Part shown: piece by piece, positions 8,635 through 33,065 of the stretch
Layout: each line of letters starts with the position of its first letter
Position numbering within the stretch: position 1 is the first letter of the stretch
Assembly: GCF_041248615.1 (NCBI RefSeq)
Contig: NZ_CP158426.1
Source of the DNA: Escherichia coli
GTDB lineage: Bacteria; Pseudomonadota; Gammaproteobacteria; Enterobacterales; Enterobacteriaceae
Length of the DNA: 64,000 nucleotides
Direction: 5' to 3' (one strand)
The notes under the pieces: model-generated
Seen by the model: only the letters and a program-made list of their open reading frames with translations
What the model was told of the DNA's origin: nothing
Databases searched by the model: none
Program-made: the position numbers and the translations under genes

Positions 8635-8961
8635 TCAAGGACGTGACGGCGTAAAGATAAATTGTCTCTTCACTCCCTGACAGGGGCGATTCTTTTCAAA
8701 TCGCCATTTCGCCATGGCCTTCACCACTTCATCACGAAACAAATTATGAGGCTCTGAGCGGAGAAAAACGATCCGTGTCACAGTCCCATCAGCACCAATA
8801 TCGAACTTAACCTCAACCAGCCCCTTGATATAATTTGCTGCAGCATATTCCGGATATCGTGGATACACCGTCACTAATTGCCGGGGCTCATCAGCTTTTT
8901 GCTGCGAGCATCCCACTGCCAGGACAGATAACAGAAAAAGTAGTAAAAGGCGTCTTTTCAT
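8635..8961 (-). CDS. lipoprotein consisting of a TonB C-terminal-domain-like fold
   Basis: start MKRRLLLLFLLSVLAVGCSQQ (signal peptide plus lipobox, Ser at +2); remainder matches the TonB C-terminal domain pattern (YP..A....I.G.V.VKFD...DG.V.......S.P.N.F..EV..AM..WRFE) of E. coli TonB as I recall it. Confidence 0.55.
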   Translation of the reverse strand: MKRRLLLLFLLSVLAVGCSQQKADEPRQLVTVYPRYPEYAAANYIKGLVEVKFDIGADGTVTRIVFLRSEPHNLFRDEVVKAMAKWRFEKNRPCQGVKRQFIFTPSRP

Positions 8962-9444
8962 TTTTATTCCTACGGGTCTTATTCTGACAATATATCCTGT
9001 GTTCCAGACTGCCACATCACCACATCCTGTGCCATTATCTGACTCACATTACATACATCGCATCGGGATACAGTAGTAGCACTTTCTGTAATACAGCTTC
9101 CTGTTTCTTCCACCATCGCACCGGGATAAACCCGCGAATCATTAACGCGGTAAAAACCCGGTGTGCATCGTTTTTAATTATTCCCGCACACTCACGCAGA
9201 AGGAATTCCCCGTCGGGCTACGGTCATGGTTAATGCGGGAATACGGCGACGATACAGCGCAGCTAAAAGGGTAATGGACGGATAGACCGGTTTATTTCAT
9301 TCCACAGGATTCTGAGTGTCCCCAACTTCCTCCAATAGTCTGAGCCCACCTGTGTAGTTTTAATTTTCATCAATCCATTTAACTATCGTTTAATTTTCTA
9401 CACATACGATTCTGCGAACTTCAAAAAGCATCGGGAATAACACC

Positions 9445-9738
9445 ATGAAAAAAATGCTACTCGCTACTGCGCTGGCCCTGCTTATTACAGGATGTGCTCA
9501 ACAGACGTTTACTGTTCAAAACAAACCGGCAGCAGTAGCACCAAAGGAAACCATCACCCATCATTTCTTCGTTTCTGGAATTGGGCAGAAGAAAACTGTC
9601 GATGCAGCCAAAATTTGTGGCGGCGCAGAAAATGTTGTTAAAACAGAAACCCAGCAAACATTCGTAAATGGATTGCTCGGTTTTATTACTTTAGGCATTT
9701 ATACTCCGCTGGAAGCGCGTGTGTATTGCTCACAATAA
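9445..9738 (+). CDS. bor: Bor lipoprotein (serum-resistance family)
   Basis: 97-aa ORF MKKMLLATALALLITGCAQQ..., matches lambda Bor as I recall it. Confidence 0.9.
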   Translation: MKKMLLATALALLITGCAQQTFTVQNKPAAVAPKETITHHFFVSGIGQKKTVDAAKICGGAENVVKTETQQTFVNGLLGFITLGIYTPLEARVYCSQ

Positions 9739-9769
9739 TTGCATGAGTTGCCCATCGATATGGGCAACT

Positions 9770-10231
9770 CTATCTGCACTGCTCATTAATATACTTCTGG
9801 GTTCCTTCCAGTTGTTTTTGCATAGTGATCAGCCTCTCTCTGAGGGTGAAATAATCCCGTTCAGCGGTGTCTGCCAGTCGGGGGGAGGCTGCATTATCCA
9901 CGCCGGAGGCGGTGGTGGCTTCACGCACTGACTGACAGACTGCTTTGATGTGCAACCGACGACGACCAGCGGCAACATCATCACGCAGAGCATCATTTTC
10001 AGCTTTAGCATCAGCTAACTCCTTCGTGTATTTTGCATCGAGCGCAGCAACATCACGCTGACGCATCTGCATGTCAGTAATTGCCGCGTTCGCCAGCTTC
10101 AGTTCTCTGGCATTTTTGTCGCGCTGGGCTTTGTAGGTAATGGCGTTATCACGGTAATGATTAACAGCCCATGACAGGCAGACGATGATGCAGATAACCA
10201 GAGCGGAGATAATCGCGGTGACTCTGCTCAT
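9770..10231 (-). CDS. Rz: spanin inner-membrane subunit Rz
   Basis: ORF 9770-10243; start [15 protein letters not shown] at 10231 gives 153 aa, matching lambda Rz. Confidence 0.9.
9829..10011 (-). CDS. Rz1: spanin outer-membrane lipoprotein subunit Rz1 (embedded in Rz, +1 frame)
   Basis: 60-aa ORF with lipobox VVVGC and proline-rich stretch, embedded in Rz. Confidence 0.85.
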
Positions 10232-10725
10232 TGCTGACCCCACAAACAGATTTCACGCTCAATCTCACGACGAGTCATGAGACCTTTCCATTGCTTACCG
10301 CCAGCATATGTCCAGCGACGTAGCTGATCACATGCGCCTTTGATATCGCCCTGGTTTATTTTGCGAAGAAGCGTCGATGTTCTGAAATTGCCAGCACCCA
10401 CGTTGTAAACGAATGAGTAAAGAGCGCCGCGCATTGTTTCCGGTATATCGACTTTGATGTACGGGTTAATTTGTCTGGCGACCGTGGCAAGGTCTTTATT
10501 CAGGAGGGCTTTGCATTCTGCTTTGGTATACGTTTTACCGAGCATGATGTCTTTTCCTGTATGCCCGTGACATACAGTCCATACACCAACAATATCTTTG
10601 TATGGTATGTAGCTGACACCTTCCAGACCATCGTTACCACTTGGGCCAGTGATTAACACTGATGCTATAGCAATTGCTCCGCCACCAATAGCAGCAGCAA
10701 CGGCTTTTCGTAATGATGGAGGCAT
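10228..10725 (-). CDS. SAR endolysin (phage 21 R21 type, T4-lysozyme fold)
   Basis: 165-aa [30 protein letters not shown]... (signal-anchor-release N-terminus) with lysozyme motifs, matching phage 21 R as I recall it. Confidence 0.9.
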
Positions 10726-10940
10726 TATTCACCTCTCGCAGCCTTGCGCTTATCTTCTTTAATCTTGAAATAAAGGTTTGTCAGGTACGTCAGCAGGCCA
10801 AATACCAGGCTACCCAGCACACCTATTGCCGCCCACTGTGAGGGCGTGACTTTATCGAGCAACTGTAAAAACCAGTACCCGGCACTACCTGCTGAGGTAC
10901 CATAGGCGACACCCGTTGTTAACTTATCCATGGATTTCAT
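10725..10940 (-). CDS. pinholin (phage 21 S21 type)
   Basis: 71-aa ORF with two TM segments and charged C-terminus, directly upstream of the SAR endolysin. Confidence 0.85.
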
Positions 10941-11528
10941 AACCCCACCTCGCAGACAAAGCGGGTGTAAATTAAGGGGATACTACGTATCGCAATAAAG
11001 GCAGAAACGTAACAGATTCGGAGTCAGTGAATAACTCAGGTATTGGGTTATCAGCTAATATCGAGACTCAAAAAATGGAAAAACCCGCTCGACGGCGGGT
11101 TTAAGCTGTGTGACGAAGTAACCACTCTTAACAGCATAACCAATTTTTTACGTACGTAAACTACTAAATGATATTTGTGAGAATGCCACCGAGTGTTCAA
11201 AACACCACCACAAATGCATAAGAAAACTTCAACAAATAACCAGTTAATAATTTCCGATGTTATTTTTAGTTTGTTTAAATTAAGCTAAAGAATTATAGAG
11301 CACTTATAAATAAGTGCCATTAATATAAATTAGCTAATAGATTTATTTTTGTTCAGACAAGAGCCATGAATAGGATTAGATAGAAAAGGTTCAGATAAAA
11401 ATAGAGATCTACTTCACAAATTAAATGAGAAACTAAAACTTACATCTTGAAATAATCACATTGATTAGATGAATATTTATCGCGCAGTGACATCATTTTT
11501 TAATAATAGTTCAAAAAAAGGGCGTACA

Positions 11529-12611
11529 ATGAAAAAATTAACAGTGGCAATTTCTGCTGTAGCTGCATCAGTACTGATGGCGATGTCTGCTCAGGCAGCT
11601 GAAATTTATAATAAAGACAGTAACAAGCTGGATCTATACGGGAAAGTTAATGCCAAGCACTACTTCTCCTCTAATGATGCAGATGATGGTGATACTACTT
11701 ATGCCCGTCTTGGCTTCAAAGGTGAAACCCAAATCAACGATCAACTGACTGGTTTCGGTCAGTGGGAATATGAATTCAAAGGCAACCGTGCTGAATCTCA
11801 AGGTTCTTCCAAAGACAAAACCCGTCTTGCATTTGCAGGCCTGAAATTTGGTGATTACGGCTCAATCGATTACGGCCGTAACTACGGTGTAGCATACGAC
11901 ATCGGTGCGTGGACTGACGTTCTGCCAGAATTCGGTGGTGATACCTGGACCCAAACAGATGTGTTCATGACTGGTCGCACTACTGGTGTTGCAACTTATC
12001 GTAACAACGACTTCTTTGGTCTGGTCGATGGCCTGAACTTTGCTGCTCAGTATCAGGGTAAAAATGACCGCACTGACGTAACTGAAGCCAATGGTGATGG
12101 TTTCGGTTTCTCCACTACTTATGAGTATGAAGGATTCGGCGTGGGTGCAACCTATGCTAAATCAGATCGCACTGACGGTCAGGTCGCCTATGGTAAGAGC
12201 AAATTCAATGCCTCCGGCAAAAATGCGGAAGTATGGGCTGCAGGCCTGAAATATGATGCGAACAATATCTATCTGGCTACCACATATTCTGAAACTCAGA
12301 ATATGACCGTTTTTGGTAATAACCATATTGCAAACAAAGCACAAAACTTTGAAGCAGTAGCACAATATCAGTTTGACTTCGGTCTGCGTCCATCTGTTGC
12401 TTACCTTCAGTCAAAAGGTAAAGACCTTGGTGTTCATGGTGACCGAGACTTAGTCAAGTATGTCGATGTCGGTGCTACTTACTACTTTAATAAAAACATG
12501 TCCACTTTTGTTGATTACAAAATCAACTTAATTGACGATAGTAAGTTTACCAAAACAGCTGGTATTGATACCGACGACATCGTCGCTGTAGGTCTGGTTT
12601 ATCAGTTCTAA
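11529..12611 (+). CDS. OmpC/OmpF-family outer-membrane porin (prophage moron, NmpC/Lc type)
   Basis: ORF 11469-12611; start [23 protein letters not shown] at 11529 (signal peptide); porin motifs and C-terminal VGLVYQF; preceded by ~350 bp of AT-rich DNA; opposite in orientation to the late operon. Confidence 0.85.
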
Positions 12612-12630
12612 TCTGACTTACGAAAAAGAT

Positions 12631-12660
12631 ATGTTGCGGGAGGCTTTGCCTCCGCAACAT
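12631..12660 (-). terminator. hairpin with T-run on the minus strand; candidate late-operon tR'
   Basis: imperfect 12-bp stem ATGTTGCGG(G)AGG / CCTCCGCAACAT; on the minus strand it is followed by ATCTTTTT. Confidence 0.4.
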
Positions 12661-12749
12661 ATAAGTGGAGCCCTCAAGCCACTTCCTTTAGAAGCACTAC
12701 CTTGCTTCTTACTATATAAACCTTCTGTTATATATTACCCTTTATTTTG

Positions 12750-12776
12750 GGGGCGTTTCCACGCCCCATTTTTAAT
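12750..12776 (+). terminator. intrinsic terminator downstream of the porin gene
   Basis: stem GGGGCGT/ACGCCCC with loop TTCC followed by ATTTTTAAT on the plus strand. Confidence 0.5.
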
Positions 12777-12799
12777 AACTTTTAGTAAACAATTGCATA

Positions 12800-13183
12800 T
12801 CAATTAGAATTATTAGCAACGATATCCATATCTAACCGGATATCTAATGCCATTAACATCCCTTCAATTATGCCCTCAGCCTTCTGTAACCTTTTCCCGA
12901 TATAACCATCCGAGCAGCAATGCTTACTTGCCAGTGACATGAATGTCATACCACATACATAATAATCTACTAATAAATCGTGTAAATCGCTGTTGTTCTT
13001 TTTCAGACGGGCCATGCACCCGCAAATGATCATCGCGTCATCGTCACAACATTGCGGGCGAGATTTTACTTTTGAAGGAATTAATCCCTTAAAACCGGCG
13101 GCAATGGACGACCAGGTCACATCTTCATGATTATTAGCCGCCCACGCACCCCAACGCTCAAGAACCATCTGAATATCACGCAT
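12800..13183 (-). CDS. late antiterminator Q (DLP12 QuuD / phage 21 type)
   Basis: ORF 12800-13198; start [21 protein letters not shown] at 13183 gives 127 aa, matching QuuD-type Q as I recall it. Confidence 0.85.
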
Positions 13184-13268
13184 CAACTTACTCCACAAAA
13201 ATCAGACCAGAACGCCAATTACAAGCAAAAATCAACAAAACAGTATTAGTTGATTGTTATCTCTGACT

Positions 13269-13391
13269 TCATACTCCTGTTCCTGTCAGGGTTTTGGCGT
13301 AATTCTTCAGTATTCGGTAATCGGTCAAAACAGAACCGAGGAAACGATATAAGCGCAGACGCCCCCAGCGGTGGCGAAGAAGTTCTGCCAT
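13269..13391 (-). CDS. small YlcG-like ORF between rusA and Q
   Basis: 40-codon minus-strand ORF MAELLRHRWGRLRLYRF... starting 14 nt after the rusA stop; below the ORF-track length cutoff; resembles DLP12 ylcG from memory. Confidence 0.4.
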   Translation of the reverse strand: MAELLRHRWGRLRLYRFLGSVLTDYRILKNYAKTLTGTGV

Positions 13392-13405
13392 ATTAAACTC
13401 AAACA

Positions 13406-13768
13406 TCATTCATTCCCCATTTCGGTGATGGTCAGTTCCAGCCTCCCACCTTTGGTAACAGGCATCTTCACAACGCGGTAATCAACGACCTGAGCATCAT
13501 CCAGCCAGAAACCTGCTTTAGTGAGTGCGTCAAAAGCGGCTTTTTGCAGATTATCCAGGTCACGGCGACGGCGATCCGGCATGTGGCACTCAATGCGGAT
13601 TTTCACAGGCATAGCCAGGCCGATATCCAGCATTGCGTTTTTAATGATTCGGGCGACGTTATCGCGGTATGCCTGCCCCTCTGCGCTGACGTGCGTGCGC
13701 CCGCGATTATGGCGGTAATAGCGATTATTGCTCGGAGGCCAGGGTAATGTGATGCTGTAGGTATTCAC
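13406..13768 (-). CDS. rusA: Holliday-junction resolvase RusA
   Basis: 120-aa ORF; RusA-family motifs; position between nin genes and Q. Confidence 0.9.
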
Positions 13769-13974
13769 GCCTTAATAACCCCCTCTTTCAGCCACATAAC
13801 CTGTGTTCTCGCCATACCTTCCAGCGCGCATTCTTTTGCATATGCAGCATCGACTTGCTTGGCATGCCCTTTACCGGCAATCTTCTGTATGCGCTAAACC
13901 TAGATAGAATCCACTCTGTGCACATTGAAGCCCGCTCTATGCTTTCTTTCAGGTATTGAAGGGATTGAGATGGG

Positions 13975-14358
13975 CTAAGCATTATTGGCCTCCTGCATCA
14001 GGAGAAAGACAATCATGGCGGCGCGGAGAGGTCTGGTATCAAATATTGGGCTTACGCCTTTTGCATCCACACACCATTCAGTTAACTGGTCTAAGATAGA
14101 AATCCTGTATTTCTCAATAATCGGCCATGAAGCGCTCGGATCATTGCAGTAGTCAGGCAAATGATTTAATGGCTCAAAAGTTGTATCAGCATTTCCGTAA
14201 TACCATTTGTTGGTGTTATTCCCTGATGTTTCCGGTTTACTTGCCCAAAGGCCTTTAAAAATTATGTCTCCTACCATTCTGTTAATTTCAAAATCACTTA
14301 ACTGTGAATAATCCATTGTCATTTCCTCGCACGATATCTTAGCCACCGGATATCCCAC
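13975..14358 (-). CDS. hypothetical nin-region phage protein
   Basis: 127-aa ORF in operon context; start uncertain (MTMDYSQL... possible); no family assigned. Confidence 0.5.
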
Positions 14359-14495
14359 AGGTGGGCTGTGTAATTGAAGGTTTTTACGTCAGATTCTTTT
14401 GGGATTAGCTTGCGTTTATTTCTGGAGCGTTTCGTTGGAAGGTATTTGCAGTTTTCGCAGATTATGTCGGTGATGCTTCGTCGCTGTCGTCTCAT
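14319..14495 (-). CDS. small hypothetical protein with CxxC motif
   Basis: internal start [18 protein letters not shown]... immediately after the methyltransferase stop. Confidence 0.3.
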
Positions 14496-15019
14496 GCAGC
14501 CCTCCTGACGCCCTGCCCGATCGCCATCAATGCCGCTTTGGATACGGTAGTAAACATCCGTCGAGGACTGATGAACGGTCGCCAAATCAGCAGCATGGAG
14601 CCTTTGCTGTTTCCCTTCTTCTCCAGCCCTGTCGATGGTTCGATAAAATTAATCCGTCCATCAGTGATAATACGAACTTCGTCAACACTCTCCAGAGCCT
14701 TGCTGAACCATCCGACAGACATATCCTCTGGCACAAGCATCACTACCGTCTGTCGCTGTTGTATACACTGCTCAGCGGCTTTTTCCACCCACGGCCTGAT
14801 ATTGCTGTACGGTGGGTTATTCCAGATTGCACCGTGGCTTACCCACTCAGAATTGAGCGCGTCGTCGTCCTCAGTTAGCCAGTGAGCGCACAGAGCATTT
14901 TTGTCGCTCGCTGCCGAATCCAGCCAGAATCCAAACTCAATATCCAGTGCATCAAAAAGCCAAAGCGGCGTTTGCCAGCAGTCCTTGTCGTGTGCTGGCG
15001 TATTTGATTTGATAGTCAT
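14492..15019 (-). CDS. phage DNA N6-adenine methyltransferase (Dam-like)
   Basis: ORF 14492-15079; start [22 protein letters not shown] at 15019 directly after the ninB stop; NPPY catalytic motif. Confidence 0.6.
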
Positions 15020-32280: not shown

Positions 32281-32730
32281 ATGGATACTACCGAAGAACG
32301 CAATGGAACATATTTCTACAGAGGACACCCGAACCTGTCCAAAATAGAACTACTCAACGTCATATTCCTTGAAGAATTCTGTAAGGAATTGGGGATTGAT
32401 TCGGTATCAGGTGCAGCAATCTTATCTGGTCAACCGTGGCTGGGTACAAGAGCGAAGCCGCAAGGGGCAACCCTGGGAACAAGTGTTGTCTCAAAGTATG
32501 CGCGTATACTGATGAGAGATGCACGCATGCCTTTTGGTATTTCTGTTCATACACCAGTGGGTGTAAGGATGCAGAAATCTAATAAGCTTGCTGCAATTAT
32601 CGCTCGTTGGGTCCCGTGGATTGGTTGGGCTTCACTGTCGATGAGTCTTTACAGGGTTTCGACTCGTACCCAGGAAAAATACAATCTGATTGCCAAACCT
32701 CAAGACCGTATTAAGTGGACTTCCTTCTAA
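32281..32730 (+). CDS. hypothetical protein (149 aa), first gene of an overlapping pair
   Basis: ORF-track entry; no family assigned. Confidence 0.55.
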   Translation: MDTTEERNGTYFYRGHPNLSKIELLNVIFLEEFCKELGIDSVSGAAILSGQPWLGTRAKPQGATLGTSVVSKYARILMRDARMPFGISVHTPVGVRMQKSNKLAAIIARWVPWIGWASLSMSLYRVSTRTQEKYNLIAKPQDRIKWTSF

Positions 32731-33065
32731 TGGCGACAACAATCACAGACGAAGTTTTAGCACTGTTCCGTGATGAGATTCCAGGTTATCAGGATGACCA
32801 CGGGAAGGAAATTCCGTTAGAACTGGACTCTGATTTGTTCGACTATCCACGAGATGATTTAGAGGACGCTATACGGAAATACAAAGAGAGGTTTGGGATT
32901 AACCTGGATAATCTGGACTGGTCTTTGTACCTTCCATGGGAGTCTGCACCATTGCTTCAACGATGGTTCAAGCTCAAGCGGGAAGAGGTAGAAACAACAC
33001 GTTTACCGTTAACTGTACGGATGTTTGCAGAATCAGCAGAAGCGGGAAAATGGCTGTATCAGTAG
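32715..33065 (+). CDS. hypothetical small acidic protein (116 aa), overlapping the upstream ORF by 16 nt
   Basis: ORF-track entry; acidic composition; no family assigned with confidence. Confidence 0.55.
   Translation: MDFLLMATTITDEVLALFRDEIPGYQDDHGKEIPLELDSDLFDYPRDDLEDAIRKYKERFGINLDNLDWSLYLPWESAPLLQRWFKLKREEVETTRLPLTVRMFAESAEAGKWLYQ

Follow-up and report, generated by a model that had tools for sequence, protein, structure and literature searches.

An intact NmpC/Lc-type porin cassette between Q and the late promoter of a lambdoid prophage of Escherichia coli

The window analysed here is a stretch of 64,000 nucleotides from Escherichia coli NRZ14408, a clinical NRZ isolate (assembly GCF_041248615.1, contig NZ_CP158426.1). 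The genes described below belong to a complete-looking lambda-like prophage located at icd. The J and tail-fibre genes of this prophage lie to the left of the window, outside it, and a search of the window for tRNA genes gave none. Between the antiterminator gene Q and the gene of the pinholin EssD, after which come the lysozyme and Rz genes, we identified a porin gene on the opposite strand, in agreement with the original prediction (Table 1). The cassette that holds it extends from about 11164 to 12823.

Table 1. Porin cassette and adjoining late genes, with positions in the window
Feature	Position	Strand	Evidence
S21-type pinholin EssD, dual start MKSM, first gene of the late lysis cassette	10725..10940	-	Pfam P21 holin S, E 2e-35; RefSeq essD
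Initial transcribed region of the late operon (qut-equivalent and tR')	11079..11132	-	Homology and terminator scan
Late promoter pR' (-35 TTTACG, 16-nt spacer, -10 TATGCT), divergent from the porin	11133..11163	-	Alignment to the annotated pR' of 933W
AT-rich variable spacer between the late and porin promoters (divergent)	11166..11400		Composition, 27.7% GC
Promoter-proximal region and 5'UTR, counterpart of K-12 PnmpC (-199 to -1)	11330..11528	+	Homology to K-12
Intact NmpC/Lc-type general porin gene	11529..12611	+	Pfam Porin_1; OmpC homologues in PDB; RefSeq CDS
Porin 3'UTR, 167 nt, IpeX regulatory RNA region	12612..12778	+	Homology to the K-12 nmpC-quuD spacer
Strong 15-bp hairpin, first IpeX stem-loop on the plus strand	12629..12661		Fold
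Intrinsic terminator of the porin/IpeX transcript	12750..12777	+	Terminator scan; -13.8 kcal/mol hairpin, then AUUUUUAAUAA
Antiterminator Q, QuuD type, 127 aa (quuD/Q)	12800..13183	-	Pfam Phage_antitermQ, E 8e-54

The enclosing open reading frame spans 11469-12611 (+), and the start codon of the porin is the ATG at 11529, the same as in the RefSeq CDS WP_000737271.1. Reading the frame from 11529 to 12611 revealed neither a frameshift nor an internal stop. The product has 360 residues, of which the first 23 form a signal peptide that can be seen in the sequence (MKK...SAQA, with cleavage before AEIYNKD), and the mature protein extends from A24 to F360. The Pfam profile Porin_1 (PF00267) is matched from end to end (positions 1-337 of 337, E 1.9e-151, 504.7 bits for a cutoff of 23.7), and the region from residue 24 to the C-terminal phenylalanine aligns with solved structures of OmpC (E 6e-137). 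The loop-3 (L3) motif PEFGGD is present and the protein terminates in ...VYQF. With this profile match, signal peptide, loop-3 motif, and C-terminal aromatic residue, the protein is, by its sequence, a member of the general bacterial porin family (OmpC/OmpF/PhoE type), and the claim of a complete porin with a signal peptide is borne out. It presumably forms a 16-stranded trimeric beta-barrel with channel activity.

The PGAP/RefSeq label of the gene is 'ompC: porin OmpC', and the protein passes the cutoff of the NCBIfam model NF007841 ('porin OmpC'), from which one might conclude that this is plain chromosomal ompC rather than phage cargo. However, this model is of the type 'subfamily' and is not an equivalog, and the protein is 63% identical to K-12 OmpC as against 91% to K-12 NmpC. 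Furthermore, the gene lies within a prophage, with Q on one side and the holin on the other, whereas true ompC adjoins micF and rcsD. Its context and these identity values already refute the equation with chromosomal ompC, which has next to no chance of being correct, and the RefSeq label is a misannotation of a prophage porin of the NmpC/Lc type. The protein also fails to reach the equivalog cutoffs of the PhoE and OmpF models, and one public source calls the exact same protein 'outer membrane porin protein LC', after the phage-borne general porin Lc (protein 2) of PA-2. Homology to NmpC and Lc, which the original prediction had proposed for comparison, is supported: the cassette has the position between Q and the S holin, the opposite orientation, and an identity to NmpC well above that to the chromosomal porins. 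The protein belongs to one fold family with OmpD of Salmonella enterica and with OmpC, OmpF, and PhoE of E. coli, with the full-length Porin_1 domain, PEFGGD in loop 3, and the C-terminal phenylalanine, but unlike them it is borne by a prophage and has no place among the core chromosomal loci. In many phage annotations, porins of this type bear the name OmpD.

The product of Q is 96% identical to QuuD of K-12 and 76% identical to Q of 933W, and the solved structure of Q21 is a distant match. The late promoter and its associated elements form a single block on the minus strand (11079-11163), 140 bp upstream of the holin. The pR' of this block is near-identical in DLP12 of K-12, with differences only at its -35-side edge, and a published study of the DLP12 lysis operon dealt with its promoter upstream of essD (PMC7918800). 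The qut-equivalent TAAGAGTGGTTAC is found at 11130-11118 and is the sole copy in the window. Just 3' of pR'/qut, the terminator scan identified tR', a hairpin at 11102-11081 followed by TTTTTCCATTTTTT, which aligns with the annotated terminator of 933W. The initial transcribed region is 96% identical to the modules of PhiR5_1 and cdtI, and 78% identical to that of 933W, whose annotation includes both terminator and qut. The homologue of pR'/qut as such occupies 11112-11163. Because the 933W-homologous block lies beside the holin, the porin is placed by homology between Q and pR', upstream of and divergent from the late promoter, and outside the late transcript. Contrary to what had been proposed, it is thus not inserted in the late operon.

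In 933W, the last codons of Q overlap the -35 element. This prompted a search upstream of pR' for leftover sequence from the C-terminus of an ancestral Q, which was dropped since tblastn gave only matches with E > 0.4. The pR' module is absent from Lambda_ev087, whose Q is 85% identical and which has another promoter-terminator unit right after Q, together with an antisense Blc gene. Hence, similarity in Q alone does not set the position of the late promoter.

The layout put forward in the original prediction has pR' directly 3' of Q, the minus-strand hairpin at 12631-12660 as tR', and the porin antisense within the late transcript, where the Q-modified polymerase reads through it. We confirmed the existence of this hairpin, which is strong (-22 kcal/mol, with z between -5 and -6 for both strands) and has CTTTTTCG, i.e., a T5 run, behind it on the minus strand, and a promoter-terminator unit immediately after Q would be in line with lambda, 933W, and Lambda_ev087. 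Yet, the promoter scan of the minus strand from 12800 to 12661 revealed no promoter-like site (the simple scan detects neither pR' nor the porin promoter, each of which scores 8 of 12), and no homologue of pR' or qut was found between Q and 12631-12660. In contrast, the only TAAGAGTGGTTAC motif forms one block with the -35/-10 pair and the terminator that align with pR', qut, and the terminator of 933W, the same block lies directly 3' of Q in the porin-less phage PhiR5_1, and the lysis promoter studied in DLP12 is the one upstream of essD. The hairpin itself falls within the conserved 3'UTR of the porin, IpeX. We conclude that the hairpin at 11102-11081 represents the conserved tR', that 12631-12660 is an unlikely tR', and that the layout as a whole is very improbable.

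The hairpin could nevertheless be a stop for transcription leaving Q, and the variants retain both the stem and the greater part of the T-run on the minus strand. It might then work in both directions, as an IpeX stem-loop on the plus strand and, on the minus strand, as an intrinsic terminator that stops un-antiterminated Q transcripts before the porin. After induction, the N-modified polymerase would read through it, giving an antisense RNA that would turn off the porin and sequester IpeX by titration in lytic growth. We regard this bidirectional scenario as speculative and rather unlikely.

The 3'UTR of the porin is IpeX, as judged from its length, its position, and its identity of 93.5% to the K-12 nmpC-quuD spacer. 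This element was missed by the original prediction. IpeX of DLP12 is a 167-nt RNA made within the porin transcript, and it represses OmpC and OmpF (PMC12197685; PMC5069750). By analogy with this homologue, the allele of the window is expected to have the same effect. It occupies the same place as in DLP12, between the stop codon of the porin and the terminator, with its exact 5' end positioned by length and homology. Compared with K-12, it carries about 10 substitutions or indels, and the second stem-loop is shorter owing to one of them. The plus strand has a folding energy of -53.6 kcal/mol (z of -6.5), with stem-loops at 12629-12661, 12663-12684, 12690-12709, and 12713-12735, and then the terminator that had been predicted 3' of the porin. 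The latter consists of GGGGCGTTTCCACGCCCC followed by ATTTTTAATA and is kept in four of four variants. A G-to-C change relative to K-12 in the first stem-loop has moved the bulge while the stem was kept. The alignment of IpeX comprises four variants that are 97% identical per column, such that covariation is not meaningful. Searches of Rfam, which has no IpeX family, gave no matches in the region 9000-15000 at E values up to 1, nor in the whole window at the gathering thresholds. The Lc porin of PA-2 is reportedly expressed in lysogens, and its 3'UTR is said to be identical to IpeX and to lower OmpC (work of Castillo-Keller in 2006). If the prophage of the window used OmpC as its receptor, the lowering of OmpC by IpeX would amount to superinfection exclusion, as has been put forward for PA-2.

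Upstream of the porin, the GC content falls to 0.26-0.31 over 11100-11500, compared with 0.45-0.50 in the flanks, and the approximately 360 bp that precede the gene have around 27% GC. The predicted AT-rich DNA of some 350 bp is therefore present. The spacer at 11166-11400 is 87-88% identical to its variants, which is below either flank, and the region at 11401-11528 is 95-97% identical to K-12 (95%), ev099, and PhiR29_1. Within the latter, the site scan gave CRP-like sites at 11403-11418 and 11445-11460 and two candidate -10 elements, AATAAT at 11451 and GAATAT at 11471; a ribosome-binding site (AAGGG) is found at around 11518. With two -10 candidates, the exact elements of the porin promoter in the window are ambiguous and can only be proposed. 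In K-12, where the start site was mapped, deletion of -199 to -1 abolishes PnmpC, which is activated by CRP and repressed by OmpR, IHF, and MprA, and which is strong enough to power IS5 transposition, as the main driver of the IS5 transposase (PMC11677980). All three ChIP data sets show H-NS on the nmpC/essD intergenic region of K-12, a 'promoter island' (PMC3661553), and by analogy the spacer is probably an H-NS binding platform. The suggestion of H-NS silencing is thus supported as regards binding, which is published for the K-12 counterpart, whereas the term 'silencing' is overstated since the K-12 promoter is active and its activity rises strongly at 37 °C.

If silencing were nonetheless effective, the porin would be intact but 'quiescent', with no role in lysogens. 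The low GC content of the upstream DNA and the H-NS-bound, transcriptionally odd 'promoter island' of K-12 would fit such a gene, and its disruption by insertion sequences, by IS5 in K-12 and by IS1 in UPEC_U013, suggests dispensability. In E. coli B, nmpC was reportedly described by Prilipov in 1998 as 'quiescent' although intact; hence, intactness alone is no guarantee of expression in every background. On the other hand, the K-12 promoter is what mainly drives the IS5 transposase, and it shows 16.5-fold induction at 37 °C (PMC8544407). Both copies of nmpC in CFT073 are up at this temperature in RNA and protein (PMC12890032), NmpC was present in 89% of the outer-membrane proteomes of UPEC (PMC9609314), and the porin of prophage Perceval, whose gene is 99.4% identical to that of the window, is expressed in LF82 at 10-fold above background (PMC9928086). 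Expression in lysogens from the porin's own promoter is thus published for homologues with 95-97% identical promoter-proximal DNA, and by analogy would be expected here. The display of the porin by lysogens, which the original prediction had anticipated, is likewise published for homologues, in the outer membranes of UPEC and for Perceval in LF82. We therefore consider it quite unlikely that the gene is effectively silent.

The cassette is not new, being the already known lysogenic-conversion porin, whose gene is nmpC in the case of DLP12 and lc in that of PA-2. Descriptions of this porin, of where it lies in lambdoid prophages, and of its disruption by IS5 in K-12 date from the 1980s. DLP12 (qsr') has the same gene order, with rusA-ylcG-quuD, the antisense porin, and then essD-rrrD-rzpD-borD, and it resembles the window throughout (porin 91%, Q 96%, 3'UTR 93.5%, and proximal promoter 95% identical, with a near-identical pR'-tR' module). 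However, in nmpC of K-12 (b0553) an IS5B interrupts the gene 58 nt ahead of the stop codon, which confirms the inactivation by an insertion sequence cited in the original prediction, whereas the gene of the window is uninterrupted. DLP12 is also a decayed element, located at argU, in contrast to the complete-looking prophage at icd. The differences between K-12 NmpC and the porin of the window cluster at residues 181-235, 263-268, and 336-341, which are taken to be surface loops. The slot between Q and the lysis genes is comparable to that of the stx cargo in 933W, whose Q and pR'-qut-tR' module are related to those of the window. Yet, stx is 3' of pR'/tR', is encoded by the late strand, and depends on Q, whereas the porin is 5' of pR', on the opposite strand, with its own promoter.

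The cassette is also very frequent. Over 1951 bp, it is 100% identical in UTI89, NU14, IHE3034, APEC O18, and ABU83972, among others. With a threshold of 80% or more of its length covered, the cassette was found in 2464 of the 5426 complete genomes of E. coli (around 45%), and 36 sequenced lambdoid phages carry it as well, Perceval among them. At least 1000 public contigs encode exactly this porin protein. The IpeX region is present in 2500 of the 5426 complete genomes, with an identity of at least 99% in 677 records of that set. These results show that the cassette is real but ordinary, very common, and of textbook arrangement. The original observation as a whole is confirmed, and the interpretation that came with it is partly supported.

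The locus is very probably an intact lysogenic-conversion porin cassette lodged between Q and pR', which forms its own transcription unit and whose IpeX 3'UTR contributes to partly swapping the host porins for the phage porin. The integrity, homology, layout, conservation, and prevalence of the cassette were established here, and expression, regulation, and IpeX activity are taken from the literature on near-identical homologues. Since the cassette is wedged between Q and the target of Q itself, i.e., the pR', qut, and tR' block, it would be an independent unit, divergent from the late operon. In a lysogen, a sigma-70 promoter belonging to the porin gene itself, no more than about 200 bp from the start codon, would drive its transcription, probably under the same control as for its K-12 homologue: activation by CRP, repression by OmpR, IHF, and MprA, binding by H-NS, and strong induction at 37 °C. 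The porin would be exported by means of its signal peptide and inserted in the outer membrane as a 16-strand trimer. The transcript would end at the terminator at 12750-12777, and its 3'UTR, as IpeX, would lower the synthesis of OmpC and OmpF. The phage porin would thereby partly replace those of the host, with altered receptor, colicin, permeability, and antigenic properties. The behaviour of the cassette during induction is something we infer.

As a discovery, the finding matters little, since the regulation and the IpeX RNA are published and the gene is annotated by RefSeq, if under the name 'ompC'. It does bear on automated annotation, as the gene is mislabelled ompC and IpeX is left unannotated in approximately 2500 complete genomes. 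It also indicates that the late promoter should not be assumed to abut Q, because in this group of phages cargo is wedged between Q and pR'. Finally, the presence of an extra, presumably functional general porin in such strains bears on explanations of antibiotic resistance or phage susceptibility that invoke the loss of porins.

According to the annotation, positions 1 to ~30335 of the window hold the right-hand portion of a lambda-like prophage that sits beside icd, with head genes, terminase, lysis cassette, Q, nin region, O/P, cII, cro, cI, N, recombination genes, xis, and int in this order. Core chromosome, rluE through nagZ, makes up the rest. The porin lies between the lysis genes and the gene of the QuuD-type antiterminator Q, whose product shares 96% identity with QuuD and 76% with the Q of phage 933W; profile searches and annotation also place Rz and Bor/Iss genes among its neighbours. 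The porin ORF spans 11469-12611 (+), its real start being the ATG at 11529, as in RefSeq, and we found no interruption in it. The product of 360 aa matches Pfam Porin_1 across the whole profile (E 1.9e-151), solved OmpC structures align with it from residue 24 to the last residue (E 6e-137), and it carries a signal peptide cleavable after AQA, the motif PEFGGD in loop 3, and a C-terminal Phe. Everything that the original prediction described here was found present: an intact porin ORF, its flanks, an AT-rich stretch, a plus-strand terminator, and a hairpin with a T-run.

The gene is an intact NmpC/Lc porin. Its product is 91% identical to the K-12 fragment of NmpC, the porin of prophage DLP12, and 63% to K-12 OmpC; these values and the prophage context refute an identification with chromosomal ompC. 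The only reason given for the PGAP name, 'ompC', is that the protein passes NCBIfam NF007841, a subfamily model (521 bits vs a cutoff of 484), and it stays below the PhoE and OmpF equivalog cutoffs of NCBIfam. In a public protein collection, at least 1000 contigs encode the exact sequence, which falls in a cluster of 2741 members, and one public source names it 'outer membrane porin protein LC'. The coding region is the most divergent segment of the cassette (85-91% vs the copies of K-12, ev099, and PhiR29_1), and the same variants share 96-98% identity with the window in the flanking Q and holin genes. The differences cluster at residues 181-235, 263-268, and 336-341, which are presumed to be surface loops. 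The identity values, with the literature on homologues, bear out the expectation of an NmpC/Lc-type porin and an altered porin repertoire. Porin codons 5-7 contain CAGTGGC (11542-11548, plus strand), complementary to what we take to be the 5' seed of the sRNA RybB. This complementarity fits the statement that the nmpC mRNA is a RybB target (PMC3333887).

The position of the porin relative to the late operon was resolved by comparison with 933W. In BLAST, the homology of the Q gene ends at window position 12851 and restarts at 11163-11079, and the 933W piece matching this second segment bears, in its record, the annotated late promoter pR' (overlapping the end of Q), the Q-responsive site qut, and the first rho-independent terminator. 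In the alignment, the -10 element of the window pR' is followed on the minus strand by the conserved initial transcribed sequence TAAGAGTGGTTACTTCGTCACACAGC, whose core motif occurs once in the window. The 55-bp block of transcribed sequence plus terminator is 96% identical in phage PhiR5_1, directly after a porin-less Q gene, and also 96% identical in phage cdtI, ahead of sense-strand cargo. In DLP12, the Q-regulated promoter of the lysis operon has been placed upstream of the pinholin gene essD (PMC7918800). By this literature and the module homology, the cassette with the porin (11164-12823 at most) is flanked by Q and pR'. It thus diverges from the late operon and, contrary to the original proposal, does not lie within it. 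A layout with late transcription starting directly behind Q and running through the porin gene in antisense is contradicted by the pR'/qut/terminator homology and seems very improbable; a promoter scan of the minus strand between Q and the hairpin at 12629-12661 gave no promoter-like site. The same homology identifies the late terminator tR' as the hairpin at 11102-11081 and makes the one at 12631-12660, originally suggested for this role, an unlikely candidate.

Features around the porin gene, with the evidence for each
Feature	Position	Strand	Details and evidence
Lysozyme	10228-10725		N-terminus resembles a SAR signal-anchor by eye
P21-type holin	10725-10940	-	Dual start MKSM; porin neighbour (profile search, annotation)
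Late tR'	11102-11081	-	Hairpin AAACCCGCCGTCGAGCGGGTTT then TTCCATTTTTT; alignment, plus terminator scan
Late promoter pR'		-	-35 TTTACG, 16-nt spacer, -10 TATGCT; alignment to 933W
Plus-strand intrinsic terminator	12750-12777	+	Terminator scan, fold
Q antiterminator	12800-13183	-	Porin neighbour (profile search, annotation)

The hairpin at 12629-12661 has a stem of 15 bp; whichever strand is folded, it is highly stable, at about -22 kcal/mol with z between -5 and -6. On the minus strand, CTTTTTCG comes after it. A stretch of 167 nt (12612-12778) reaches from the stop codon of the porin through the T-run of the terminator. It is 93.5% identical to the K-12 nmpC-quuD spacer and better conserved than the porin coding region. 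The plus-strand RNA folds into four stem-loops and the terminator (-53.6 kcal/mol, z -6.5). In phage PA-2, the sequence of the regulatory RNA IpeX is said to follow the porin gene lc, and lysogeny by this phage reportedly lowers OmpC. IpeX of DLP12 is described as likewise 167 nt long: it is transcribed together with the porin, from the promoter of that gene, is later processed, and represses OmpC/OmpF (PMC12197685, PMC5069750, PMC3333887, PMC7177473). The original prediction missed IpeX: judged by sequence and length, 12612-12778 matches it, and the hairpin at 12629-12661 would belong to this 3'UTR. A G-to-C change relative to K-12 shifts the bulge of stem-loop 1 and leaves the stem unbroken. 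In ev099 and PhiR29_1, stem-loop 3 has a G-U pair owing to an A-to-G change; on the other strand this would be a C-A mismatch. Both differences fit a plus-strand RNA, in variants too alike for a real covariation test. Rfam gave no model for this RNA. An IpeX-like region is present in 2500 of the 5426 complete genomes, and none of 12 records among the matches listed has an annotation under the match. That stem-loop 1 doubles as a minus-strand terminator, insulating the porin from transcription leaving Q, we regard as unlikely.

Upstream of the porin, GC drops to 0.26-0.31 over 11100-11500, and H-NS silencing had been proposed. The K-12 nmpC/essD intergenic region is one of 78 'promoter islands', and each of the three ChIP data sets considered shows it bound by H-NS (PMC3661553). 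This fits the thermoregulation of nmpC, whose induction on a shift from 23 to 37 °C ranks with the strongest in K-12 (16.5-fold; PMC8544407). Binding is thus supported, but silence is not, as homologues are expressed. Both nmpC copies of CFT073 rise at 37 °C at the RNA and protein level (PMC12890032), the porin copy of Perceval stands 10-fold over the local background in overnight culture of LF82 (PMC9928086), and 89% of UPEC outer-membrane proteomes contained NmpC (PMC9609314). In K-12, a sigma-70 promoter with a mapped start site lies within 199 bp of the nmpC start; it is described as activated by CRP and repressed by OmpR, IHF, and MprA, and its strength makes it the chief supplier of IS5 transposase (PMC11677980). 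The matching 128 bp of the window share 95-97% identity with K-12, ev099, and PhiR29_1. Site scans of this segment picked out two candidate -10 elements, neither preferred, as well as CRP-like sites at 11403-11418 and at 11445-11460. A fully silent gene would accord with the IS insertions in K-12 (IS5) and UPEC_U013 (IS1), which show the porin to be dispensable, but near-identical copies are expressed elsewhere and we consider full silence quite improbable. Inside the AT-rich spacer, a sigma-70-like site matching at 10 of 12 positions (ATGGCA, 17-nt spacer, TATAAT; 11292-11320, minus strand) points to pR', and fits the 'promoter island' character published for the K-12 counterpart (PMC3661553).

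The porin cassette is already known and very common. We compared the 1951 bp that separate the 3' end of Q from the 5' end of the holin gene. This stretch is 100% identical in UTI89, NU14, IHE3034, APEC O18, ABU 83972, and many others, and its coverage reaches at least 80% in 2464 of the 5426 complete E. coli genomes. Among sequenced lambdoid phages, 36 carry it, including ev017 (99.9%) and Perceval of LF82 (99.4%). DLP12 has the same order as the window: rusA-ylcG-quuD, antisense nmpC, and essD-rrrD-rzpD-borD. As originally stated, K-12 nmpC is inactivated, by IS5B 58 nt before the stop codon, whereas the window porin is intact. An identical cassette is split by IS1 in UPEC_U013 (NZ_CP058596.1 2917620-2920347), which together with IS5 in K-12 suggests that IS elements have inactivated this prophage porin repeatedly. 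In Lambda_ev087 (470-1171), Q is 85% identical and directly followed by a different promoter-terminator unit (terminator at 590-618), and an antisense lipocalin Blc gene occupies the slot of the porin; hence the Q-to-lysis gap is a general cargo site with variable placement of the late promoter. The P1-like phage phi456 (2565-3677) has a porin gene 74.5% identical in nucleotides, annotated only as a hypothetical protein, and a few large plasmid records also bear NmpC/OmpD-like porins.

Just past the lysis cassette, at 9445-9738 (+) and 8638-8964 (-), are two more genes in the style of lysogenic conversion. One is a Bor homologue, named Iss (increased serum survival) in RefSeq, and the product of the other is small, carries a TonB C-terminal domain, and belongs to a PHROGs family labelled 'Rz-like spanin'; a 'TonB fragment' is among the genes expressed in the LF82 Perceval lysogen (PMC9928086). 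A truncated DUF1364 (NinH-region) pseudogene between rusA and ninX (13765-13854, minus strand) gives a minor hint that the nin region has undergone mosaic rearrangement. Between icd and rluE, an islet of two genes (~32281-33065, plus strand) encodes an STM2901 family protein and a DUF1493 protein; no segment matching it appears at this locus of UTI89, whose alignment is interrupted between the two genes.

Under the lambda paradigm and the homologies found, cI would hold pR off in the lysogen, leaving no Q, and transcripts from pR' would end at tR' with the lysis genes off. Upon induction, Q would act at pR'/qut beside the holin, on a transcript without the porin, which would be crossed antisense only by N-antiterminated read-through from pR through Q. 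As homology and the literature suggest, the porin would be transcribed independently from its own promoter, exported, and assembled as a general porin. Its 3'UTR IpeX would, as described in K-12 and PA-2, reduce OmpC/OmpF synthesis, so that the phage porin may partly replace the host porins.
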